UHGV virus genome: UHGV-1369770
Length of the DNA: 38,283 bases
Direction: 5' to 3' (one strand)
Source: a virus
Shown here one piece after another: positions 5,616 to 26,884 of this stretch. Each line of letters begins with the position of its first letter. Position 1 is the stretch's first letter. The notes below the pieces were generated by a model, which searched no databases, was not told the origin of the DNA, and saw nothing but the letters and a program-made list of their open reading frames with translations. A program made the position numbers and the translations under genes.

Positions 5616-5668
5616 TTGGTTTACTTCCTTTCTGGTATAATTATTTTGAAAGCGTGGTGAAAAATATT

Positions 5669-5887: not shown

Positions 5888-6099
5888 TTTTTTTGAGGAG
5901 TAGTTACAGTTACTTCTCTATTTTTTCGGACTGTATCACGATAATTTTCTACTGAATGATAAACAATCACTTGCTCTAAATGCTTTTTGTATTCATTTTT
6001 TATCGCATCAATAATTAGAAGTTCCTGATGTTGATGCTCAATTATTTTGATTAACTCTTCTTTAGACATTTCTGCATAGTATGGTTTTAATTCACCCAT
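5884..6099 (-). CDS. hypothetical early protein (72 aa from the ATG at 6099; the ORF track extends it to a TTG at 6138)
   Basis: AAAGGAA SD 8 nt upstream of ATG (MGELKPYYAEMSKEE...). The upstream TTG start has no SD. Confidence 0.5.
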   Translation of the reverse strand: MGELKPYYAEMSKEELIKIIEHQHQELLIIDAIKNEYKKHLEQVIVYHSVENYRDTVRKNREVTVTTPQKN

Positions 6100-6175
6100 T
6101 TGTTTATTTCCTTTCTGGTATAATTTTCTTATCAGCAAATGGTCTGCTGAAATAATTCATAAGGTGGTGAAAATA

Positions 6176-17739: not shown

Positions 17740-18479
17740 TTTGGCTTAATTTTAAAATCAGTGATATAGGTATAATTGATAATGCTTTCGCCTGGGGGCA
17801 GAGTGATTGGGTTATAACCATCTGTATTTAAAAAGCAATATTTTGTGATATTAAGGCCACCATCTTTATAAGCAATGCCTTCTTCGCAATCTAGCGTAAT
17901 TTTTCCTGTTCCAGCTTCTTTTGCAATCCTGAATTGTTGGCCATTAATATAAATATTACTATCTTGTGTACTACTAGTTTTATTGAAAGTTATAATTGGC
18001 AGACTAGAAAAAGCTTCTGGATTCCTAATACCACCTCCACTTTTTATATCTCTTTCATCATCACCATCAAGACGAAAAACGAACGGCTGGCACTTAAAAA
18101 CAAAATCAACATCTAACCAACTTCTTGTTTTGTCTGCTGCATCTACTTTGCTGTAGCCTAGCGCTTTATAATAGTACTCGCTGTATTCACTAAAAATAAG
18201 TGGGGCATAATCTTTCGATAAATAAAGCCACGCAGCTATATCCCTTAACTGCGCAGCAATGGTTGTATCTGGTTGTTTATAAAGTCTTACCGGAAAGACT
18301 TTCTCAATGTCGTTATATTTTCCTTTATCGTATATGACATCGGAATTTCTTCCGTCAATTTCTGTAAACTGCAGAGCGGCTTCTGGAATAGTAAACGTCA
18401 TTTCGTTTCTTATTCGCATAGCGAATTCATTCGATTTTTTTCCTCTAAATTGAAAATATGGATAATTCGTTAAATCCAT
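17718..18479 (-). CDS. distal tail protein (Dit)
   Basis: 253 aa, directly after TMP. Typical Dit position and size. Overlaps the Tal start. Confidence 0.65.
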   Translation of the reverse strand: MDLTNYPYFQFRGKKSNEFAMRIRNEMTFTIPEAALQFTEIDGRNSDVIYDKGKYNDIEKVFPVRLYKQPDTTIAAQLRDIAAWLYLSKDYAPLIFSEYSEYYYKALGYSKVDAADKTRSWLDVDFVFKCQPFVFRLDGDDERDIKSGGGIRNPEAFSSLPIITFNKTSSTQDSNIYINGQQFRIAKEAGTGKITLDCEEGIAYKDGGLNITKYCFLNTDGYNPITLPPGESIINYTYITDFKIKPKWRTLAV

Positions 18480-21400
18480 TATAGCCGCCCCCTTGTTTGT
18501 CGTTCTGTGAGTGTTGCCAATTGTTGAGAAGTTTCTTCAATTGATTTCTCATTAGAAAGATCTGCATGTTCAATGTTTATATTGATTGTAGGATTGTAGG
18601 TTTTCGCAAAGTTGCTATTATTTACAATTTGGCTACCCAAATTAGCAGCGCCCATCATATTTGTGTTTAATGCTAATTCTGGACTAGTAAAGTTAAAATT
18701 TGAAAAAGCATTGTCAAATGAGAGTTCCTTAGAAATAGAATCTGCCATATTAGAAGTAAGATGTTTAACATTATCAAATCCTGCTATTATTCCCTTTTCT
18801 AAACCAAACATTAGTGCAGAACCATTATCAATTAAAACTTTTTTATCATATGGAATTGGACCTTTTAAACTAGCGATAGTATCTGCGATACCACTAACAA
18901 AGCCTTTAACTTTTTCAAATCCCCATTTTATTCCTTTTAGTAATCCACCCATTAAAGATGTACCTGCATCCCATAGTTCATCTCCAACAATTGCAGAACC
19001 TAAACTATTTACTAATCTTTTTACTGCCTCTCTAGCCTCTTCTTTATTATTATCAATACCCTCTGCTAAACCATTAATTAATCGTATAGCTGCTTTCCAC
19101 ATTCTATCTGAGAAATTAATAATATTCTCAACTAATTTATCGACTAAATCAGCGGCTGCATTTACTAATCGGTATAAATTATTTCCAATTCCTTCTATAC
19201 ATTTCACTACTAAATCCATACCTGCATCAACGATTCGTGATAGATTATTAGAAATACCTTGTAGTACGCTAACGATTAACGTCACTCCGGCATCAATGAT
19301 ATCAGGCATTCTAGAAGATAATCCATTTAAGAAATTAATCATCAAATTAACAGCTGCATCGATAATATCTCCCATTCTATTACCGATTGCATTAACAAAA
19401 TTAACGATAATACTAATTGCTTCATTAGTGACTCTGCCAATATTATTTGCAATTCCACGAAGAAAATTAACCAGCAAATTGAAACCAGCTTGCAAAATAT
19501 CTGGCAAATGTTTATTCAACTCTGAAAGCCACGTGATAATTAATGTAGCCATATTTTGCACTACTTTAGGTAATTGTTCTGTTATACCTTGAAGCAATGC
19601 ATTTATTAAACTAGCTCCAGCTCCTAACAACTTTGGTAATGCTTCAGTAAGTGAACCTAAAAAAGTAGTAATAATCGTCGTTGCTGATTCTATGATAGTC
19701 GGCATAACTAATAAGATACCGTTAGTCAGTGCATTGATTATTTGTACTGCAGATTGAGCAATGATAGGCAACAGCGTGACTATTCCATTAGTAAACGCCA
19801 TTATCAGTTCTCCCGCAGATACTACAATGCTTGGCAATCCTTGTGCGATACCAGAAATAAAACCAGACACTACTTGTAAAGCTCCAGTAATAATACCTGG
19901 TAAAGCATTGGCAATCGCACCTAAAATTCCTTGTAGCGCTGTACCAAAATTTGTACCTAATTGTGGCCCATAAGTTTTGATTCCTTCAGCTAATCCTTTA
20001 AAAGAATTCATAATTGTATCAATACCTTTATTTACATCTCCGCCACCCAGAGCTTTTGCTAGTAATTCAAAAACTTTTATAAAAAGACCAACGGGACCCA
20101 TCATTCCTAGGATAACCATTTTAAGAATTTTTAAACCTACACCAACTATATCAAATGATTTTCCAACTCTCTCAGTTGGGTTTATAAGTTTTTTTAGAGA
20201 ATCTATCACATTTTTTATTGCTTTACCGATTTTCATGATATTTTGCTCACCTTTGACGGTGAATGCTCCTTCAAGAAAATTACTTAATTCGCTCATATTT
20301 TTAATTGAACCAGACATTATTTTTCCGATTGCCTTTATCCCAAGTTTCATATCATTAATTTTTCCAGTAAAATTAATCATTCCTTGCCAAAGACTTTCAG
20401 GAAATAGCTTAATAAATTGAGACCTTAATTCCGCGATTTTCTCTCCTGGACCATTGGTTAGCATTTCAACAAAGCCTTTACTTAAAAGCTTTAATCCTTT
20501 AAATACTTGATCAATGGGTTTCATGAACGATTTTAAAGTCGACACCATTCCATCAACCTTATTCCTAAAAGTATCTGAAGTTTTATAAAAATAGATGAAA
20601 GCTGCGATTAATGCACCAATTCCAGCGATAACTACAGCAAAAGGATTTGCCATCATAGCCACTTTCATTAATGAGAAAGCCGTTTTGACACCATTAATTG
20701 CTGTTTTAACACTGTTCATAATTCCGATAGTTGCTTTGAAAGCAATAAAGCCTGCTATAGCACCAACAATAACAGAACCTAGAAATTTAATTATTTGAGC
20801 ATTTTTACTAATAAGTTCAAACAATTTATCAAAAATAGGAAATTTATCGCCAATTGAGTCTAATAGTTCTGCAAATGCCGCTTTTACATGAGGAATAGAA
20901 GCTTTGACAAAAGTAACAATCGCTCTTGGTAATGCTTTTAATATATTTCCAATCATGGGAATAAAGTTACCGAAAAGAAATGTGGCCGTTGTTTCTGCTA
21001 ACTGATTTAAAGAAGGTTGGATATCTTGTCCAAGAGCCATTTTACCAAGTACATTAGATAAAGAAGCTTTCATAGCTGCGAATGAACCGCTAAGTGTCTC
21101 TGCCGCTTCTTTTGCTGTAGTTCCTGTGATATCAAGATTTTCTTGTATTGCGTGAATGGCATTGTATACATCACTTAGGTTACTAATATCATATTTAACG
21201 CCTGTAAGTTTTTCGGCATCAGAGAGTAGTCGTTGCATCTCTTCTTTTGTACCACCGTAACCTAATTTCAAGTTATCAAGCATTGTATAGTTTTGCTTTG
21301 CAAAACCTTGATAGGCATTTTGAATATCTTGCATATTTGTACCCATTTTGTTGGCGTTGTCAGACATATCAATCATAGCCATATTTGCAACATCTGCTGC

Positions 21401-21799
21401 TTTTTCTGTATCGCCACCAACAGATTGTAGTAAACTAGCGCTAAAACTTGTTACGTTTTCCATATATGCATTCGCTGATAACCCAGATGTTTTATACGCT
21501 TCATCTGCATACTTTTTTACTTTGTCCGCACTACCTTTGAATAATGTTTCAATCCCACCGAGGGATTGTTGTAGATTTGCTCCTTCTGAAATTGCGGTAG
21601 AGAATGCAGTTTTAATTGATGAAATAGCTTTGCCTACAACTGCAGAAGCAACTTTTACTAATCCCATTGAGATAGCTAAATTTTTTATAGAAAAACCAGC
21701 TTTGTCACTACTGCCTTCCAATTGATCTAGCTGGCTGTTAAGCCCAGCTACACTTTTACCATTAACATCAACATCAATTACAACTTGCCCATCAGCCAT
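18479..21799 (-). CDS. tape measure protein
   Basis: 1106 aa with repetitive Gly/Ala/Ile-rich helical repeats (GNIL...NALPGII...). The longest gene in the tail module. Confidence 0.85.
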   Translation of the reverse strand: MADGQVVIDVDVNGKSVAGLNSQLDQLEGSSDKAGFSIKNLAISMGLVKVASAVVGKAISSIKTAFSTAISEGANLQQSLGGIETLFKGSADKVKKYADEAYKTSGLSANAYMENVTSFSASLLQSVGGDTEKAADVANMAMIDMSDNANKMGTNMQDIQNAYQGFAKQNYTMLDNLKLGYGGTKEEMQRLLSDAEKLTGVKYDISNLSDVYNAIHAIQENLDITGTTAKEAAETLSGSFAAMKASLSNVLGKMALGQDIQPSLNQLAETTATFLFGNFIPMIGNILKALPRAIVTFVKASIPHVKAAFAELLDSIGDKFPIFDKLFELISKNAQIIKFLGSVIVGAIAGFIAFKATIGIMNSVKTAINGVKTAFSLMKVAMMANPFAVVIAGIGALIAAFIYFYKTSDTFRNKVDGMVSTLKSFMKPIDQVFKGLKLLSKGFVEMLTNGPGEKIAELRSQFIKLFPESLWQGMINFTGKINDMKLGIKAIGKIMSGSIKNMSELSNFLEGAFTVKGEQNIMKIGKAIKNVIDSLKKLINPTERVGKSFDIVGVGLKILKMVILGMMGPVGLFIKVFELLAKALGGGDVNKGIDTIMNSFKGLAEGIKTYGPQLGTNFGTALQGILGAIANALPGIITGALQVVSGFISGIAQGLPSIVVSAGELIMAFTNGIVTLLPIIAQSAVQIINALTNGILLVMPTIIESATTIITTFLGSLTEALPKLLGAGASLINALLQGITEQLPKVVQNMATLIITWLSELNKHLPDILQAGFNLLVNFLRGIANNIGRVTNEAISIIVNFVNAIGNRMGDIIDAAVNLMINFLNGLSSRMPDIIDAGVTLIVSVLQGISNNLSRIVDAGMDLVVKCIEGIGNNLYRLVNAAADLVDKLVENIINFSDRMWKAAIRLINGLAEGIDNNKEEAREAVKRLVNSLGSAIVGDELWDAGTSLMGGLLKGIKWGFEKVKGFVSGIADTIASLKGPIPYDKKVLIDNGSALMFGLEKGIIAGFDNVKHLTSNMADSISKELSFDNAFSNFNFTSPELALNTNMMGAANLGSQIVNNSNFAKTYNPTININIEHADLSNEKSIEETSQQLATLTERQTRGRL

Positions 21800-22373
21800 C
21801 TTCTTCCTCCTCTCCTAAGTCAGTATTAGGTAAGGCATATTTCCTTTTTAACTCTCGCATTCGACGTTTTTCTTTACTTGATTCCCCTTTTTGAGGTTCC
21901 CAATTCCTAATCTGAATAATCCTCTGCATAATACAATTATCTGGTAGACTCTCTAAAAGTGCTTGAAACTCTTCCCAACTCATTTTTCCTTGTTCTTCGA
22001 AAAGATTAATACCAATTTGACGAAAAGAAGCATAGATATACTTGGCATCATAAACCAAATCTATATCTTTACTATTTATTTTAGTTGGTAATTCATTGCC
22101 TAATTCATCAGTTTCAACTTCGGAATGTTGACCTAAAAGCAGGTATTCATCATAAACGTATTTAAACATTTCAAATTTTTGTAGTATATCTAAATCAACT
22201 TCCCCAACTAAGATTAGAATCGAAAGTTCAATCTTATCTTCTAATATCAAACTCTCATCTTGTATTATTTCAAAAACATCAAGGACATGATCAAACGCTA
22301 AGTTTATTGGAAATTCTTTGCCCAAAAACGAAAAGGATGTAGTCAGCGGATTATTCAACCGCATAATACTCAT
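21792..22373 (-). CDS. tail assembly chaperone, downstream (gpT-like) ORF
   Basis: Position between the G-like chaperone and TMP. The start overlaps the upstream stop (ATGA). Confidence 0.5.
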   Translation of the reverse strand: MSIMRLNNPLTTSFSFLGKEFPINLAFDHVLDVFEIIQDESLILEDKIELSILILVGEVDLDILQKFEMFKYVYDEYLLLGQHSEVETDELGNELPTKINSKDIDLVYDAKYIYASFRQIGINLFEEQGKMSWEEFQALLESLPDNCIMQRIIQIRNWEPQKGESSKEKRRMRELKRKYALPNTDLGEEEEDG

Positions 22374-22789
22374 CCTTTCTTTTTGCTAACTTTTTTTAGA
22401 TATTCTTGTTTTAATTTTTTTGATTTTTTACCACGCTCATCTAATAATTCAGTCTGTTTCTTAGTGTATTCTTCAATAGATTCACTAATACCTACTGATA
22501 AATCGTAAAAGGCGTTTAGCCATGCGATTATGTCTGGGATGTCTTTATACAAAATTGCAAACGTACCTTCACCAAGTACGGAATCATACCCTTTTGTCAA
22601 CACAGAAATATATAATTCATCACTCATTTCCTCAGAATTTTCATCTAAGTCTTTCAGTTCTTGTACGACTTTATCGTACGTTTCTTCATATTCTTTTATA
22701 TGCTCTAATGAACAATCAAAGAAAAATTCGTGCCCAGCAATTTTCACTGGAAAACCAGTACGCTCTACTTTAATCTCTAATGCTTTCAT
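22370..22789 (-). CDS. tail assembly chaperone (gpG-like)
   Basis: 139 aa acidic protein between the major tail/Ig gene and TMP. Confidence 0.55.
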   Translation of the reverse strand: MKALEIKVERTGFPVKIAGHEFFFDCSLEHIKEYEETYDKVVQELKDLDENSEEMSDELYISVLTKGYDSVLGEGTFAILYKDIPDIIAWLNAFYDLSVGISESIEEYTKKQTELLDERGKKSKKLKQEYLKKVSKKKG

Positions 22790-22841: not shown

Positions 22842-23294
22842 TTATGCTTGATTATTAAGTGTTAAGGTATGTTGTGCTGTTTTCTTACCATCCTCTGTTT
22901 CGCCTTCGGTAACATAAGTACCAACTGGTACCGTTTCTGTCCAAGTAATATTACCTGTTTCAGAGACAGCAAGGCCTTCTGTTACAGGCGTAATAGAATA
23001 GTTTACTTTTTTATTTGTAGCATTTTCAGGCAAAACAGTTGCTGTGATTTGTCGGCTACCTGCAGTACCCGCATTTGCTGTGGACGTTTTAGGAGAAAAC
23101 TCTAAGCCTGTTACAGCAATTGGCGATGTTTTAAATGACGGTACATCTACTTTTTCGCCGCCGTCTGCAAAACCTACTTTGTATGTTCCTGATGGAACGT
23201 CGGTGTTTGGCTCAATACCTGTAATTTCTAGAGGGCTTGGACTAGCCGGAACAATGACTTCCTCACCTTTATAAACAATATACTCTCTAGCCAT
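22842..23294 (-). CDS. Ig-like (Big_2-type) domain protein
   Basis: SRQITATVLPENATNKKVNYSITPVTEGLAVSETGNITWTETVPVGTYVTEGET matches the Big_2 fold pattern. AAAGGAG SD. Confidence 0.6.
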   Translation of the reverse strand: MAREYIVYKGEEVIVPASPSPLEITGIEPNTDVPSGTYKVGFADGGEKVDVPSFKTSPIAVTGLEFSPKTSTANAGTAGSRQITATVLPENATNKKVNYSITPVTEGLAVSETGNITWTETVPVGTYVTEGETEDGKKTAQHTLTLNNQA

Positions 23295-23296
23295 TC

Positions 23297-23377
23297 TTAT
23301 TCTCCTTTCTCCATTTCAATGATTACCCCAGTTTTAGTCGGAGTCATTTTACCGATTACTGGGGTTATACTTTTGGG
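23297..23377 (-). other. candidate -1 programmed ribosomal frameshift cassette at the 3' end of the major tail gene (slippery C CCA AAA, 6-nt spacer, hairpin; 24-codon -1 extension)
   Basis: mRNA: ...ATC ACC CCA AAA GTA TAA CCCCAGU[25 nt]ACUGGGG... The -1 frame reads SITPVIGKMTPTKTGVIIEMEKGE and stops 2 nt before the next ATG. Confidence 0.55.
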
Positions 23378-23844
23378 GTGATATTAGGTAAGGTATCAAA
23401 GGTAATCGTGCAGCTGAAATCTTCATACTCTGTCGCATCTCCTGCACCAGCGACAATATCTGTTACTGTTGCACGCCCTACATAAGTATCGCCATTCGTC
23501 ATAATAATTTTATGCCAAATCTTACGATTTTCTCCAATTTTGTATTTTTTACTTGCAATTAATTTTTGTGCGGGATCTTCTGGGTCATAAAATCCTTCAG
23601 GACTATAAGCACCAGAAACAGAAGTCACTGTAGTTTCTGGTGTACCATCGCCATCATAGAAACCTGCATCGTCCGTTTCTTCATCGGTATCATCGCCAAT
23701 TGAACTAATGTACTTGGCAAGACGTTTCCACTCTAACTCGGTAGTTGGTGCTGTTTCTTTCCCAGGTACATACTCAGCAATAAAATGCTGCCGTTTTGCA
23801 TTTTTGTTCCGTGCAAACAATTGAATATTCATTTTTAATAACAT
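23365..23844 (-). CDS. major tail protein (zero-frame product)
   Basis: 159 aa at the canonical position upstream of the chaperones. It ends ...NITPKV. Confidence 0.7.
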   Translation of the reverse strand: MLLKMNIQLFARNKNAKRQHFIAEYVPGKETAPTTELEWKRLAKYISSIGDDTDEETDDAGFYDGDGTPETTVTSVSGAYSPEGFYDPEDPAQKLIASKKYKIGENRKIWHKIIMTNGDTYVGRATVTDIVAGAGDATEYEDFSCTITFDTLPNITPKV

Positions 23845-24242
23845 TAATTTTCCTCCTTAAATGTGGTTAATTTTGCTTGAAAATCTAATAAAAAAACGAA
23901 CCAACCTTGTTCATCAGCTTCATTAATGAACGGTTTGCTCGTTATCATTAAATTATTACACTCAAAAGAGCCATCTTTACTTGATAATTCTTCAATACTT
24001 TCTAATACATCTGAAAGAAGCCACAACGTATGCTCTAACTTATTACCGTCTTTTGATTTCATGGCAATTTCATAGTTTAACAACTCGTCTTTGATTCCGT
24101 CATAATATTCGGTTTCTACCTTACCGCCCGGTAATGAGTAAATCACTAAACTTTCTAGTGCTGAAAGGTATCCTTTCCGGATATTTAACGGCAAATTTGG
24201 AATCTGATTTATCCTTTCGTTTAAACAATCAAGAAAATCCAT
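23844..24242 (-). CDS. tail completion / tail terminator-like protein
   Basis: 132 aa; position between the head-tail joining genes and the major tail gene. Confidence 0.45.
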   Translation of the reverse strand: MDFLDCLNERINQIPNLPLNIRKGYLSALESLVIYSLPGGKVETEYYDGIKDELLNYEIAMKSKDGNKLEHTLWLLSDVLESIEELSSKDGSFECNNLMITSKPFINEADEQGWFVFLLDFQAKLTTFKEEN

Positions 24243-24568
24243 TATTTAATACCCGCTCCTTTCAAAAAGGCACGTTCCCACGAATTCATATAAGCACCTT
24301 TTGCTTTTAAATCCCACCGTGGTCCAGTCCCAGGCGTAGTATATTTTTTTCCATTTAGATAAAATTGGCGTTTCGCATATTTTGTACCATAAATAATCTT
24401 TTCACCTTCACTTGATAAATGAGCGCTTTGCCTTAAACTATTATTTTTTCGTGGTACAAATTGATTCATATCTGCCATCGCTTGATTACCAAGCGCATAT
24501 CTGCCTCGTCTCATTGCCTCAGGGCTTACTTTGGTTCTTACACCGCTTAAATTCACCTTAATCCCCAT
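24242..24568 (-). CDS. head-tail joining protein (HK97 gp10-like position)
   Basis: 108 aa in the connector block. Confidence 0.45.
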   Translation of the reverse strand: MGIKVNLSGVRTKVSPEAMRRGRYALGNQAMADMNQFVPRKNNSLRQSAHLSSEGEKIIYGTKYAKRQFYLNGKKYTTPGTGPRWDLKAKGAYMNSWERAFLKGAGIK

Positions 24569-24909
24569 CAGACTACCTCAATCTCATACGAGTAGACATC
24601 ATTCGAATAGGCTTCAATTACGGTATCAACTTTAGTGATTACGTGTTCTTTGTCATCGTAAATAACTACTGATTGTTCTTTGAACTCAGGCAAAGGCGTA
24701 GTCAATTCGTGATAACAGAAAATCAATCCGTTATAAAGCAATTGTTTGCCACTTGATGAAAAAGTATATTGGCTTCCTCTGTCAATTCGGCAATACTCAA
24801 TAAGGATCGGTTCCTTGTATACTGGCTTGTTCCAATCGCCCTCCCCTAAGTACTCTTTATACTCAAAGGAATCAACTAAGAATTTTTTGGGTGGCTTTGG
24901 CATTAGCAT
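24568..24909 (-). CDS. head closure / head-tail adaptor protein
   Basis: 113 aa in the connector block. Confidence 0.45.
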   Translation of the reverse strand: MLMPKPPKKFLVDSFEYKEYLGEGDWNKPVYKEPILIEYCRIDRGSQYTFSSSGKQLLYNGLIFCYHELTTPLPEFKEQSVVIYDDKEHVITKVDTVIEAYSNDVYSYEIEVV

Positions 24910-25307
24910 GACGAAACACCTCGATATAACAAACCTGTACCTTCCAGATACAAATAAACGTCTTCGGCAGTTAACGACTTACTTTCGTTATTTCCAGAAG
25001 GATTGTAGCGACTGGCATTAGAAATACTCGTACGGCCTGCTGAAAAGCTTTGAGGGGCATTGTTGATACTTTCATACGTATCCGCACCAACATCGACAAA
25101 ATACATTATTTGTGCACACAGAGCGAGTTTAAACTGTTTCACTCTAAATTGCCTAGAATCTTTCATTATATCATTGAACTGATAAAAGTAATTCGTTACG
25201 TTATCAATCGCTGCGGCGGCTTTTACTAAATATTTTTCAAAGTTATCTTTATATTCATCTGTGGCGCCTGTAAGCTCTTTAAACTCTTCAAAATCAATAT
25301 AGGACAT
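24903..25307 (-). CDS. head-tail connector (gp6/gp15-like DNA packaging) protein
   Basis: 134 aa, first gene after the capsid gene. AGGAGG SD. Confidence 0.55.
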   Translation of the reverse strand: MSYIDFEEFKELTGATDEYKDNFEKYLVKAAAAIDNVTNYFYQFNDIMKDSRQFRVKQFKLALCAQIMYFVDVGADTYESINNAPQSFSAGRTSISNASRYNPSGNNESKSLTAEDVYLYLEGTGLLYRGVSSC

Positions 25308-25321
25308 CTTAGATTCCTCCT

Positions 25322-25350
25322 AAAAAAAGAAGGAGACTAAGCTCCTTCTT
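25322..25350 (-). terminator. rho-independent terminator after the major capsid gene (attenuator)
   Basis: Minus strand: AAGAAGGAG CUUAGU CUCCUUCUU followed by UUUUUUU. Immediately before the connector gene SD. Confidence 0.65.
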
Positions 25351-25417
25351 CCATTTCAATAACTACCCCGCTTGTTGTCGGCGTTAGTTTACCAACTTTC
25401 GGGGCTACACTTTTGGG
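25337..25417 (-). other. candidate -1 PRF cassette at the 3' end of the major capsid gene (same heptamer C CCA AAA, 6-nt spacer, hairpin CCCCG...CGGGG; 24-codon extension)
   Basis: mRNA: ...GTT GCC CCA AAA GTG TAG CCCCG... The -1 frame reads SVAPKVGKLTPTTSGVVIEMEEGA, homologous to the tail extension. Confidence 0.55.
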
Positions 25418-26271
25418 GCAACACCTTTAATAATCGCTTTAGCATTTTTTTCAGGGATATATTTGCCATACTTACCTGCCGCTTGTAACGCTGTGCCTGC
25501 GAAATCTTCTGAATCCATAGCACGTGCTACTTGAATACCTACGCCAGCTACACCTACGTTATCAGCTGAAAAAATTGCTACCTCATTTGGTTGAAATTTT
25601 TCATCTGGTAACTCTTCTAAAACAAACCCTTTAAATTTGTATAAAGTTTGTTCATCAACATTAGCGGATGAATTTTTAGAAGTTGTTGCAAGTTTTGAAT
25701 CAATTAATAAGTCGTAAACGTCTGAATTAACATAGGCAACCCATGCAACGTTTTGAGAAACATTGTTATTAACAAATTTCTTATGAGCATTAGAAAATAG
25801 TTTTGTAATACCAGCTTCATCTAATGTAGTGGTTAGTTCTTCACTTGCATTGTCAGATAATGCTTTGCCTAACAAGTTATCCACATGTTGCGCCCAGGCA
25901 ACAGCATGCAAAGCTAAGCGCTCTGCTACAACTTGATCAGGAATATCATTTACAGTAAACTGATCGACACCTTCATGAATTGAAAGTGGCGCTTCATATT
26001 TAACTTGTTTATTGACTGATTTAACTTCTTTACGTTTACCAAAACGGCTTGAGCTGCCTGTCCCTGTTCCAAATCCTACATTTTCATCTGTCGAATATGC
26101 TTGAATAACAACGTCCGTATCTGTAACTTTCAAATCTAGAAATGTATCGTTTTGAGAGACTCCGTCTTTTGTCTGTAAAGTACCTCCGAAAGCACGTAAA
26201 AATACTGCTTTTTTAGCAAACAGTTCTGGCAAAATACCTGCATATTGTTTAGTGTAATATTTGATTGACAT
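25405..26271 (-). CDS. major capsid protein
   Basis: 288 aa after the scaffold gene. It ends ...KGVAPKV. Confidence 0.8.
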   Translation of the reverse strand: MSIKYYTKQYAGILPELFAKKAVFLRAFGGTLQTKDGVSQNDTFLDLKVTDTDVVIQAYSTDENVGFGTGTGSSSRFGKRKEVKSVNKQVKYEAPLSIHEGVDQFTVNDIPDQVVAERLALHAVAWAQHVDNLLGKALSDNASEELTTTLDEAGITKLFSNAHKKFVNNNVSQNVAWVAYVNSDVYDLLIDSKLATTSKNSSANVDEQTLYKFKGFVLEELPDEKFQPNEVAIFSADNVGVAGVGIQVARAMDSEDFAGTALQAAGKYGKYIPEKNAKAIIKGVAPKV

Positions 26272-26287
26272 AATTTATTTCTCCTTC

Positions 26288-26884
26288 TTAAATATATTTT
26301 TCAACTGCTGCTGCAAACACGTCTGTGTTTCCTTTATCATTTTTAGGATTTCCAGGGTTAACGATTTGCGGCGTTGAAGCTGGGTCTTTATCGGTTTGAA
26401 ACAAAAAGGCTTTATTTTCTTGTAGTCCCTTTAATTGTTCCTCAAAACCTTGTAAATTACCGTCGACAACTTTAATAGTGTCTTTATCTAGTTGACCAAG
26501 TAAGATTTCTTCATCAAGCGCATTCGCTTCTTTTAATGCTAATTTAATTGCGAAATCTTTTTGTTGTTCAGCTAACTGTTTTTCAGAATTATTTTTCGCT
26601 TCATCAAACTTTGTTTGTAAATCAGCTAATTTTTGCGTTAAATCATCGTTTCCTTGTGCTGATTCTTTTAAGGCCGTCAATTCTTCTTGGTTAGCTTCTA
26701 GTTCTTGCTTAGCGCTGTCACGTTCACTCTCTGCAGTAGCAACTTGCGCATTTAGTTGCGTGACCGTCTTACCATGTAAAGCCATGATAGACTTCGCTGT
26801 TTCTTCCTCAATGCCTAATGCGATTAAATCCTCTTTTTTCATAAATCTGTTCCTCCTAAGTGTTTTTTGAGTGGCAACTCCCAC
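26288..26884 (-). CDS. scaffolding protein
   Basis: 198 aa coiled-coil acidic protein between the minor head and capsid genes (AQVATAESERDSAKQELEANQEELTALKES). Confidence 0.7.
   Translation of the reverse strand: MGVATQKTLRRNRFMKKEDLIALGIEEETAKSIMALHGKTVTQLNAQVATAESERDSAKQELEANQEELTALKESAQGNDDLTQKLADLQTKFDEAKNNSEKQLAEQQKDFAIKLALKEANALDEEILLGQLDKDTIKVVDGNLQGFEEQLKGLQENKAFLFQTDKDPASTPQIVNPGNPKNDKGNTDVFAAAVEKYI

Follow-up and report, generated by a model that had tools for sequence, protein, structure and literature searches.

Ribosomal frameshifting can lengthen the structural proteins of phages at their C-termini. The closest described system is that of phage A2. Frameshifting by −1 into Ig-like extensions has been published for this phage, as reviewed by Atkins (2016), and yields the pairs gp5A/gp5B in the head and gp10A/gp10B in the tail (Garcia 2004; Rodriguez 2005). 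Our account of the A2 experiments follows that review and the references of the phiEf11 paper, and the A2 heptamers were read from the genome (NC_004112): both genes end xCC CCA AAA GCG TAR, with the heptamer 3 nt before the stop. Recoding of Cps and Tsh is described for the Listeria phages A118, A500, and PSA (Zimmer 2003 and Dorscht 2009, as cited by Atkins 2016). In SPP1, frameshifting adds an FN3 domain to the tail tube protein to give gp17.1*, in a 3:1 ratio. A2 gp5B and gp10B, SPP1 gp17.1*, and the T3 10B class are whole-domain extensions; in the known cases of capsid or tail proteins lengthened at the C-terminus by frameshifting, the addition is always an entire Ig-like domain, fused to the structural protein.

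Short extensions are a puzzle and have so far gone unannotated. In phiEf11, a 21-aa −1 extension of the major capsid protein (MCP), ORF10, was proposed and called speculative by the authors, who made no link to ORF16 or to the C-terminus of the major tail protein (MTP). In the virions, the MCP runs as two bands that differ by about 3 kDa; both were assigned to ORF10, and mass spectrometry did not find the extension peptide (PMC5221750).

Here, we analyze a prophage of Enterococcus faecalis, represented by a 38,283-nucleotide stretch of DNA (the window). A sequence-only reading of this DNA had proposed that two homologous −1 frameshift cassettes tag the MCP and the MTP alike; comparative evidence from A2, relatives, and hairpin covariation supports that core reading. 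We discuss the cassettes, the 24-aa tag that they encode, and the relation of this tag to a 150-aa Ig-like protein, the decorator, whose gene directly follows the MTP gene.

Cassettes at the ends of the capsid and tail genes

Both genes and both cassettes lie on the minus strand. The features are as follows.

25405..26271, minus strand: MCP gene, 288 aa, zero frame (phrog_840 major head protein, E = 1.5e-135)
25411..25417, minus strand: capsid slippery heptamer C CCA AAA, followed by GTG TAG (X XXY YYZ register; heptamer and position as in phage A2 orf5)
25365..25405, minus strand: capsid stimulating hairpin, outer stem GCCCCG/CGGGGU (25400-25405 with 25365-25370), inner stem within 25377-25396 (MFE fold, z = -2.58)
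25337..25411, minus strand: capsid −1 frame tag ORF, SVAPKVGKLTPTTSGVVIEMEEGA plus TAG (24 codons open)
25322..25350, minus strand: putative terminator-like hairpin AAGAAGGAG-CUUAGU-CUCCUUCUU, followed by a U-run (MFE and centroid fold, 9-10 bp stem)
23365..23844, minus strand: MTP (tail tube) gene, 159 aa, zero frame (phrog_820 major tail protein, E = 1.6e-60)
23371..23377, minus strand: tail slippery heptamer C CCA AAA, followed by GTA TAA (X XXY YYZ register; kept in the MTP relatives L061, L062, L072, and L075-L078)
23325..23365, minus strand: tail stimulating hairpin, outer stem ACCCCAGU/ACUGGGGU (23358-23365 with 23325-23332), inner stem UCGG/CCGA within 23338-23355 (MFE fold, z = -2.32)
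23297..23371, minus strand: tail −1 frame tag ORF, SITPVIGKMTPTKTGVIIEMEKGE plus TAA (24 codons open)

The MCP shares 80% identity with its counterpart in Lactococcus phage ul36 and 79% with that of the S. thermophilus 987 group. The MTP belongs to the Listeria A118 Tsh-like family and lies in a module with Minor_capsid_1, Minor_capsid_2, and Phage_Gp15. The genes end ACC CCA AAA GTA TAA (MTP) and GCC CCA AAA GTG TAG (MCP), and a register check bears out the in-frame X XXY YYZ heptamer claimed for each. The 17-nt signal CCCAAAAGTNTARCCCC occurs twice, against 0.00 occurrences expected from 100 shuffles. Identity between the two elements, put at about 75% beforehand, is 77% over 77 nt; with a spacing of 2040, they form the top direct-repeat family of the whole window. 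Near-identical cassettes follow various MCP and MTP genes in ~16 IMG/VR contigs, and in such contigs the capsid tag also stands behind two different MCP C-termini.

The locus resembles A2 in its twin MCP and MTP cassettes, in the identical C CCA AAA, and in the single sense codon before the stop; both are Firmicutes siphophages. The A2 extensions differ in being complete Big_2-type domains (87 and 82 aa) within a single polypeptide, whereas those of the window are 24 aa long, and the A2 stem does not have the initial CCCC. With phiEf11 the window shares the host species, a homologous tag (IEAPKVESVIPTTDGASIVLS), the same CCCCG...CGGGG hairpin, and a homologous decorator, ORF16 (85% nucleotide identity). 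It differs in that phiEf11 ORF10 has the slippery site A AAA AAA, in that its MCP and MTP come from families unrelated to those of the window, and in that its MTP tag lies in frame, with no frameshift needed. The Listeria phages are alike in their A118-like MTP family and structural module, and in the recoding of capsid and tail genes at their 3' ends; their tsh uses +1 at CCC_UGA, whereas the two window genes would shift by −1 at C CCA AAA and give short products. An A118/PSA-type +1 shift at the tail gene was considered and rejected: the end reads CCA AAA GTA TAA, with 6 codons in the +1 frame before it closes. The relative L081 has CCC TGA, of the A118/PSA +1 type.

Relatives keep the slippery site, the stop, and the CCCC...GGGG hairpin, and vary in what the −1 ORF encodes: Big_2 domains (86-90 aa), fn3 domains (91-115 aa; that of L063 is a full fn3, E = 8e-10), HeH-like extensions, or short tags. 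Extension modules are thus variable, and some MCPs have no extension; in L134/L079, a natural 1-nt insertion shortens a 31-aa extension to 5 aa. An extension of this recoded type also accounts for phiFL4A gp40, an annotated gene product that is part of one. On these comparisons of sequence, the −1 frameshift reading is well supported.

The hairpins CCCCAGU/ACUGGGG and CCCCG/CGGGG, claimed earlier, were confirmed by folding, which added an inner stem to each (UCGG/CCGA in the tail, GUUGGU/GCCGAC in the capsid), giving two-tier hairpins with a heptamer-to-hairpin spacer of 5-6 nt in both cassettes. Across lineages, 88% of cells are paired, versus 23-59% in slid controls, and 4 pairs show compensatory changes; the covariation score was matched by 1 of 500 shuffles. 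The sequence-only reading had also suggested a pseudoknot with compensatory changes. Pairings of 5 bp are present in each copy; they lie in different registers and therefore do not represent compensatory changes. Over 10 cassettes, the candidate pseudoknot helix is paired in 64% or 42% of cells, versus 85-92% for the two stems, and an H-type pseudoknot stimulator is not supported.

Both tags had been described as stopping within the SD of the next gene. This holds for the tail tag, whose last codons contain that SD and whose TAA is 2 nt before the ATG. It does not hold for the capsid tag, which stops upstream of the real SD of the next gene (25305-25321), in the loop of the terminator-like hairpin; this hairpin overlaps the last codons of the tag. 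We regard the terminator-like hairpin (25322..25350) as tentative, since a consensus terminator scan made no call at this hairpin 3' of the capsid cassette.

The tag as a peptide and as a candidate part of an FN3-like domain

The −1 translations recover the 14 of 24 identical tag residues reported before. That differences in the −1 frame are mostly conservative, another claim from the sequence alone, is upheld by BLOSUM permutation tests (p ~0.0004-0.002 under a random-placement null) and by further variants. Split by codon position, the differences between the two window copies number 7/4/10, a weak bias taken alone; those between the capsid copy and L113 number 4/2/10. The region 3' of the stem is likewise conservative in the −1 frame. 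Within the stems, CCCC, GGGG, and CCGAC alone dictate AP, G, and PT in the peptide. As to whether the −1 frame stays open in homologues, a check proposed earlier, no tag of the genuine genes has an internal stop codon. Tags of 21-24 aa with the same pattern are found from Enterococcus to Halalkalibacterium and Oceanobacillus, always read through the hairpin. The phiEf11 MTP carries the tag in frame, and the S. equorum MTP reaches it by a +1 shift at CCC_TAA, without the stem. These comparisons support the view that the tag is under selection as a peptide. Candidate junction and tag peptides of the extended MCP and MTP are SITPVIGK, TGVIIEMEK, and LTPTTSGVVIEMEEGA; the extended species are predicted to be ~2.5 kDa heavier.

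The decorator gene has two parts.

23121..23294, minus strand: N-terminal adaptor, ~residues 1-58, FN3-like without strands A-B (homologue fn3 matches and the P0056 alignment)
22842..23120, minus strand: C-terminal Big_2 Ig-like domain, ~residues 59-150, plus stop

All 46 database homologues of the 150-aa decorator begin M..YK(I/V)YKG, and an exhaustive search found ~60 small relatives, all with a match that starts at residue 1-6. Residues 3-55 of the homologue P0037 match positions 30-83 of the 84 in the Pfam fn3 profile (27.2 bits, cut-off 25). The protein P0056 has complete, unsplit repeats, and the tag aligns to their first ~20 residues. When tag and adaptor are fused in silico, the window fusion aligns colinearly with the P0056 repeats through the junction (E = 8e-10), as does the phiEf11 fusion (E = 7e-15 and 6e-10). 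An AF2 model of the covalent fusion has a mean pLDDT of 94, with the tag strands (residues 6-11 and 16-20) at 88-96, the tag being covered by 2 of 29 alignment rows; both halves of the model are Ig-like. AF2 with a single sequence was uninformative (pLDDT 31).

Other searches gave little. Pfam fn3 matched neither the window fusion nor the window decorator; the fusion profile found among PDB sequences only fibronectin E-F strands and neurexin, at E ~0.2-0.9; hhalign of this profile with P0056 returned only the match of the adaptor to the N-terminus; and BLASTP of the L063 full-fn3 extension against the fusion was not significant. P0046 was rejected as a tag-bearing protein: it is unrelated or chimeric, and contains an adaptor fragment.

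By computation, tag and adaptor are homologous to two halves of a single FN3-like domain, strands A-B and strands C-G. The tag matches the first two strands of such a domain, so its description as a short tag rather than an Ig domain is not supported. SPP1 gp17.1* is similar as an FN3-type decoration of a siphophage tail tube, placed sub-stoichiometrically via recoding. It differs in that the whole FN3 is fused covalently, whereas the 24-aa extension of the window corresponds to strands A-B only.

Gene order links the two halves. In the window, L001, L002, phiEf11, L226, L229, L080, L086, L078, L227, and the L119 group, a tag of ~20 aa closes the gene that precedes the decorator; this gene is always tagged, by four different routes, and the MCP and MTP families involved are unrelated. 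Tags on both MCP and MTP occur in the window, phiEf11, L078, L080, L086, L226, L229, and L119/L127. The order tag-stop-SD-ATG-adaptor is conserved, with 1-33 nt from tag stop to decorator ATG across lineages (1-2 nt in the window group), an SD for each decorator, and a frame relation of −1, +1, or 0 depending on the lineage. Adaptor genes accompany 14/21 of the loci with short tags, compared with 1/41 of those with long extensions (Fisher p = 5e-8). The other 7 of the 21, among them the 'AAKVG' class, have no adaptor gene in the DNA examined, and this class may work differently. The protein P0040 and the L219 group are decorators with a C-terminal tag of their own, which could chain or self-complete.

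Competing explanations

Could the tag be made and act alone? It might serve as cement or by beta-augmentation between neighboring subunits of the MCP or the MTP, or might signal assembly, and the FN3 likeness and the adjacent decorator would then be what evolution has left of an ancestral MTP-FN3-Big_2 extension after its division. Such a role would suit the short tags that have no adaptor gene in the DNA examined (L141, L198, L213, and L214 of the AAKVG class, and also L208 and L218) and the capsid copy, which adjoins no decorator gene; complementation in trans is, moreover, something that we infer from sequence. We nevertheless consider a tag that acts alone unlikely. Every member of the decorator family starts exactly at strand C, and an isolated five-strand FN3 fragment would lack completeness without a partner. 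In addition, the conserved gene order spans the four ways of attachment and the unrelated MCP and MTP families, and short tags go together with the adaptor gene (p = 5e-8). Quite improbable, in our judgment, is decay of the cassettes, in which Ig-like extensions would have disappeared or been disrupted by indels, the site and hairpin would persist by inertia, and the 24-aa product would be rare and without function. Gain and loss of modules among relatives, MCPs without an extension, the truncation in L134/L079, and the dispensability of Ig-like extensions in SPP1 speak for it. Against it stand the near-identical cassette behind different genes in ~16 contigs, the conservative −1-frame substitutions, and the recurrence of 21-24 aa tags that read through the hairpin, from Enterococcus to Halalkalibacterium and Oceanobacillus, with no internal stops in genuine genes.

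The peptide pattern is kept where there is neither stem nor frameshift (phiEf11 MTP, in frame; S. equorum, +1), which speaks against the cassettes being mainly RNA or regulatory elements for mRNA stability, termination, or translational coupling, in which, for instance, shifted ribosomes might terminate 2 nt before the decorator ATG and re-initiate, or might melt the terminator-like hairpin. The proximity of tail-tag stop and decorator ATG in the window group, with the SD within tag codons, the end of the capsid tag in a terminator-like loop, and the residues forced by the stems all suit such a role. Set against these are the 1-33 nt between stop and ATG across lineages, each with its own SD, and the conservative −1 frame 3' of the stem; coupling could be an added layer, and it leaves the FN3 A-B homology unexplained. 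We rate this explanation as highly improbable. A second recoding event at the tag stop, by double frameshift or readthrough, would fuse MTP-tag to decorator in a long MTP-FN3-Big_2 protein like SPP1 gp17.1* or A2 gp10B. It has some appeal, in that tag and adaptor together make one domain and in that the phiEf11 decorator is in frame with the MTP, with one stop and five codons between. We rejected it, as scarcely credible, because frames (−1, +1, 0) and spacings (1-33 nt) between tag and decorator vary between lineages; the decorator also has its own SD and ATG, no slippery motif lies between the tag stop and the TGA upstream of it, the capsid cassette has no decorator ORF downstream, and the phiEf11 MTP band runs at 28-30 kDa, versus the 38 kDa expected of a fusion (PMC5221750).

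Proposed split-domain docking and its significance

The explanation that we find probable, taken as a whole, combines A2-type −1 cassettes with a split FN3 domain that docks one decorator on head and tail. A fraction of ribosomes would slip by −1 on C CCA AAA, one codon before the stop, with the two-tier hairpin supplying the stall. In the products of slippage, the terminal Val would be replaced by a 24-residue tail, the predicted A-B beta-hairpin of an FN3-like domain; the remaining five strands, C-G, would be the N-terminal adaptor of the 150-aa protein, which joins this adaptor to Big_2. Tagged MCP and MTP subunits would show a half-domain that the decorator completes, anchoring the same Big_2 on head and tail, and frameshift efficiency would set decorator occupancy. 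By analogy with proposals for other phage Ig-like domains, Big_2 may act in surface adhesion. The tag probably clips the decorator onto both head and tail; among the three functions offered by the sequence-only reading (a decoration-binding handle, a glue between capsid and tail lattices, or a protease or assembly signal), we favor the decoration-binding handle.

Completion of an Ig-like sandwich that lacks strands by another chain is familiar from chaperone-usher pilins, SpyTag/SpyCatcher, and engineered split FN3. The principle proposed here is the same: a strand-lacking sandwich completed by another polypeptide. The differences are several: there is no homology, two strands would be donated and not one, no isopeptide chemistry is indicated, and the donor would arise from ribosomal frameshifting. 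A limited search of the literature found nothing relevant on strand or fragment complementation in phage decoration, which is weak evidence of absence. Frameshifting at this locus seems to be an event of a known kind, and split-domain docking seems to be undescribed.

The arrangement may extend well beyond this prophage. We see the case as evenly balanced for a two-piece tag and catcher in many Firmicutes siphophages, in which a ~20-aa FN3 A-B hairpin, carried by a fraction of capsid and tail-tube subunits (through −1 frameshifting, through +1 frameshifting, or in frame), completes the adaptor of a decorator. One decorator gene would then serve both structures, and the efficiency of frameshifting would determine its occupancy. 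Under the same arrangement, and with the arguments again about equal on either side, decorators would be modular, with an adaptor that stands alone or is joined to a Big_2 domain, to two of them, or to larger domains.

If the split-domain reading is true, it would account for the short extensions and for the identical tag on head and tail, and would give a role to widespread genes annotated as 'phage tail protein' or 'major tail protein' that are really decorators. It would represent a new mode of decoration attachment, by domain completion as opposed to surface-patch binding, and would provide a compact natural pair of peptide and domain to display cargo on phage heads and tails. Whatever the mechanism, the survey identifies C CCA AAA NNN TAR CCCC as a recoding junction open to reuse, one that annotation pipelines overlook.

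Twin cassettes at the ends of the capsid and tail genes

The genes for the major capsid protein (MCP) and the major tail protein (MTP) lie on the minus strand of the window, among the features listed here.

Structural genes and slippery sites of the window (PHROG/Pfam scans; slippery sites from the sequence)
26288-26884, minus strand: scaffold protein
25405-26271, minus strand: MCP (phrog_840)
25411-25417, minus strand: capsid slippery CCCAAAA in X XXY YYZ register
24903-25307, 24568-24909, and 24242-24568, minus strand: three connector genes
23844-24242, minus strand: tail terminator
23365-23844, minus strand: MTP, A118 Tsh-like (phrog_820)
23371-23377, minus strand: tail slippery CCCAAAA in X XXY YYZ register
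22842-23294, minus strand: 150-aa protein, the decorator (weak Big_2 match)
22370-22789 and 21792-22373, minus strand: two chaperone-like genes (DUF6673, Phage_Gp15)
18479-21799, minus strand: tape measure protein

The MCP gene ends GCC CCA AAA GTG TAG and the MTP gene ACC CCA AAA GTA TAA; each opens a -1 frame of 24 codons that encodes a C-terminal tag, SVAPKVGKLTPTTSGVVIEMEEGA in the capsid and SITPVIGKMTPTKTGVIIEMEKGE in the tail, followed by a stop. Predicted tryptic peptides are TPK-SITPVIGK, MTPTK, and TGVIIEMEK for the tail and APK-SVAPK and LTPTTSGVVIEMEEGA for the capsid; the tag peptides are short. The 77-nt elements are the top direct repeat of the window (77% identity, spacing 2040), which holds no third copy, and two copies of the 17-nt signal stand against 0.00 expected. 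In each RNA, a two-tier hairpin begins 5-6 nt downstream of the heptamer (z = -2.3 and -2.6). In-register heptamers, open frames, and hairpins together confirm the twin candidate -1 frameshift cassettes described in the sequence-only reading.

Across 10 short-tag cassettes from different lineages, 88% of hairpin cells pair, against 23-59% with partner columns slid; compensatory changes occur at 4 hairpin pairs, and the covariation score is matched in 1 of 500 shuffles. By computation, the signals are present, conserved, and covarying; we infer that ribosomes slip on the window cassettes in vivo. The pseudoknot that had also been proposed is not borne out: its two 5-bp pairings lie in different registers and are paired in 64% and 42% of cells across lineages.

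Directly 3′ of the capsid cassette is a terminator-like hairpin (25322-25350, minus strand), not called in the consensus terminator scan, that sequesters an SD-like GAAGGAG. This motif is homologous to the real SD of the tail cassette, which suggests that the capsid copy may derive from a tail-type cassette. Outside the structural region, the prophage has a 32-nt direct repeat (5616-5647 and 6099-6130; 88% identity, 483 nt apart).

The junction and its extensions among relatives

Comparison provides the strongest argument for the candidate frameshift signal. According to a review (Atkins 2016), phage A2 extends both its head and its tail protein with Ig-like sequence by -1 frameshifting. Its genome carries ACC CCA AAA GCG TAA and GCC CCA AAA GCG TAG; the -1 ORFs behind them are 87 and 82 aa long. 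The twin MCP/MTP design, the exact heptamer, and its position are common to A2 and the window and so have proven precedent. It is chiefly A2 and the relatives that support the core of the earlier reading, a short tag shared by MCP and MTP through -1 frameshifting; frameshifting in the window varies a theme known from A2, SPP1, and A118.

Relatives of the MCP (Lactococcus P335 phages such as ul36, the S. thermophilus 987 group, and IMG/VR contigs) carry A AAA AAA G, ACA AAG, or C CCA AAA at the equivalent junction, then a stop and CCCC...GGGG. Their -1 ORF is a Big_2 domain of 86-90 aa, and a few lack the extension altogether. Relatives of the MTP carry C CCA AAA or A AAA AAA and then varying modules: a full fn3 domain of 91-115 aa (Pfam fn3 E = 8e-10 for locus L063) or peptides of 21-31 aa; one, L081, has a Listeria-type CCC TGA +1 site. 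An IMG/VR scan for CCCAAAAGNNTARCCCC returned more than 119 stretches; among the matches listed, the -1 modules behind MCP- or MTP-sized ORFs are Big_2 (86-90 aa), SAP/HeH-like (43-72 aa), and short tags (16-24 aa).

Short extensions were already hinted at by phiEf11. Its MCP gene has A AAA AAA TAG ahead of the CCCCG...CGGGG stem also seen in the window, with a -1 frame that would add 21 aa, IEAPKVESVIPTTDGASIVLS; its MTP (ORF15, L116 3743-4336), of a family unrelated to the window MTP, ends in frame with SPSVESVTPTFDGASTELS. In phiEf11 virions, two MCP bands lie ~3 kDa apart, the MCP extension was looked for by mass spectrometry and not detected, and the MTP ran at 28-30 kDa against 21.5 kDa predicted, for which the authors gave no explanation (PMC5221750).

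Several loci extend this diversity. The SAP/HeH-like extensions of 43-72 aa, a third and non-Ig module class, follow many MCP genes with a C CCA AAA cassette among the matches listed (L129, L136, L144, L149, L154, L157, L188, and others) and end …TVDQIKAYLDA..I.Y....KADLL.LV. At the MTP 3′ end of L134 and L079, a natural 1-nt insertion cuts the 31-aa extension seen in L072, L075, and L076 to LAPSD and a stop, a ready-made natural knock-out. In phiFL4A (NC_013644, 4640-4960), MCP gp39 ends GTA AAA AAA GCG TAA and leads into an Ig-like extension of 97 aa in the -1 frame; gp40 (50 aa), annotated as a "hypothetical protein," corresponds to the C-terminal part of this extension, and so is probably a mis-annotated frameshift product. 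In Bacillaceae and other prophages, the CCCC...GGGG hairpin and 21-aa tags recur behind a non-canonical site, (U/C)CG GGG GAG TAR (L226 2415-2485 and 4885-4960; L229 2415-2485 and 4930-5005; also L080, L086, L087, and L089). From this sequence, the -1 shift would be made by tRNA-Gly on G GGG rather than by tandem slippage of the X XXY YYZ type.

Tag, adaptor, and the halves of an FN3 domain

The gene directly upstream of the decorator gene ends in a ~20-aa tag, followed by SD-ATG, in the loci tabulated here.

Gene upstream of the decorator and origin of its tag
Window, L001, L002: MTP; -1 at C CCA AAA
phiEf11: MTP; in frame
Halalkalibacterium L226, Oceanobacillus L229, L080, L086: MCP; -1 at G GGG GAG TAA
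L078: MCP; -1 at C CCA AAA
S. equorum L227: MTP; +1 at CCC_TAA
L119/L127 group: MCP; -1 at C CCA AAA, the next gene encoding an 82-85-aa adaptor-only protein

In the window, the tail-tag stop sits 2 nt ahead of the decorator ATG. A second structural gene is tagged too in the window, phiEf11, L078, L080, L086, L226, L229, and L119/L127, and the two tags of one genome resemble each other; one decorator gene, after MCP or MTP, therefore goes with two tagged proteins. Among loci fetched by generic signal, with no selection for tag type, the adaptor gene is present in 14 of 21 short-tag loci vs 1 of 41 long-extension loci (Fisher p = 5e-8). Gene order and the co-occurrence of tag and adaptor gene are conserved. 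The S. equorum tag, which directly precedes the decorator homologue P0043, uses a Listeria-type shifty stop for the same purpose. A second class of twin short tags, SLAPTVGAAKVGTAKLGGK and SVTPTVGSAKVGDATL, occurs in L141 (5566-5640 and 7965-8030), L012, L198, L213, and L214; no adaptor gene was found in the locus sequence examined for this class.

The decorator family is widespread; in annotations it is usually called "phage tail protein" or "major tail protein." Enterococcus faecalis supplies the closest homologues of the 150-aa protein (95% identity); all 46 of 46 database homologues, from Enterococcus, Oceanobacillus, Halalkalibacterium, and Staphylococcus, begin M..(Y/F)K(I/V)YKG. Among these, P0037 (44% identity) aligns with Pfam fn3 from residue 3 at profile positions 30-83 of 84 only (27.2 bits vs a cut-off of 25), so the family starts at FN3 strand C, without strands A and B. 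Decorators are modular: the adaptor stands alone or with one Big_2, two Big_2, or a larger domain plus HeH.

Searched exhaustively as a profile, the 60-residue adaptor matched 1314 representatives. The best 150 of these include ~60 small proteins with a match starting at residue 1-6 and a group of giant repeat proteins, each matched internally 4-32 times. The two groups are linked by P0056, where a truncated adaptor precedes two complete repeats whose segments ahead of the adaptor-like part, LTAPVVEMTSNMYNGTAFELT and YPPEVESVVPTDTTATITMIS, are tag-like. An artificial fusion of the phiEf11 tag and adaptor is colinear through the junction with one P0056 repeat (38% identity, 88 columns, E = 7e-15) and with the other (E = 6e-10), as is a window tail-tag and adaptor fusion with a complete repeat (36%, 84 columns, E = 8e-10). 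Tag and adaptor are homologous to two halves of one domain. The AF2 model has the halves covalently fused, with the tag covered by 2 alignment rows only.

Tag-like A-B segments also occur at the C-termini of some adaptor proteins themselves (APAPTNLVVTPTADGATIAAG; APSNVNVEPSETTATITV), in 98-99-aa ORFs of L219, L152, L171, L136, and L149 and in P0040, an arrangement that suggests either circular permutation of FN3 or decorators chained head to tail. P0046 (E. faecalis, 160 aa), otherwise unrelated to the decorator, holds a 30-residue adaptor fragment, EYIVYKGEEVIVPASVPSPLEITGIEPN; it probably arose as a chimera, through assembly or recombination.

Alternatives and the proposed mechanism

We consider it most likely that -1 frameshifting would give a fraction of MCP and MTP subunits an FN3 A-B hairpin, that the separately made decorator would complete this domain with its strands C-G, and that the completed domain would anchor Big_2 on head and tail. 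We infer both the association of the tag and adaptor halves in trans and the biological role of the Big_2 domain.

That the cassettes are instead an RNA or coupling element is quite improbable. Read in the -1 frame, the stem arms CCCC, GGGG, and CCGAC alone dictate AP, G, and PT, so the similarity between tags is partly RNA-driven; despite this, four observations point to selection on the tag peptide. A tag-specific pattern finds ~16 IMG/VR contigs, most with twin copies ~2040 nt apart behind differing MCP and MTP C-termini. The tag also has diverged forms, SVAPEVEKLTPTTTGVVVEMKEGA and SVAPVVDKITPTTTGVIIDMKEGI. Amino acids of the -1 frame are better conserved than under a random-placement null (p = 0.0004-0.002). 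Across codon positions, the capsid copy differs from L113 by 4/2/10; the two window copies alone are weak evidence (7/4/10). The tag pattern also occurs without frameshifting or stem, in frame in the phiEf11 MTP and by +1 in S. equorum, whose MTP (PF04630; L227/L228 2395-2470) ends ACA CCC TAA and shifts at CCC_TAA into a 20-aa tag, KVPQKVEVSANSKSASISAE.

We regard a decaying relic as unlikely, and give a somewhat larger, still small, chance to independent action of the tag. A double recoding event, fusing tagged protein and decorator, is highly improbable, because the spacing from tag stop to decorator ATG varies across lineages from 1 to 33 nt and falls in all three frames.

A limited literature search, itself weak evidence of absence, found no description of a short extension as half a domain, of the other half as the N-terminus of a separate decorator family, or of head and tail sharing one decorator in this way. 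A short extension that is half a domain, with its other half on a separate decorator common to head and tail, is apparently new, and the split-domain mechanism is both testable and fairly surprising.
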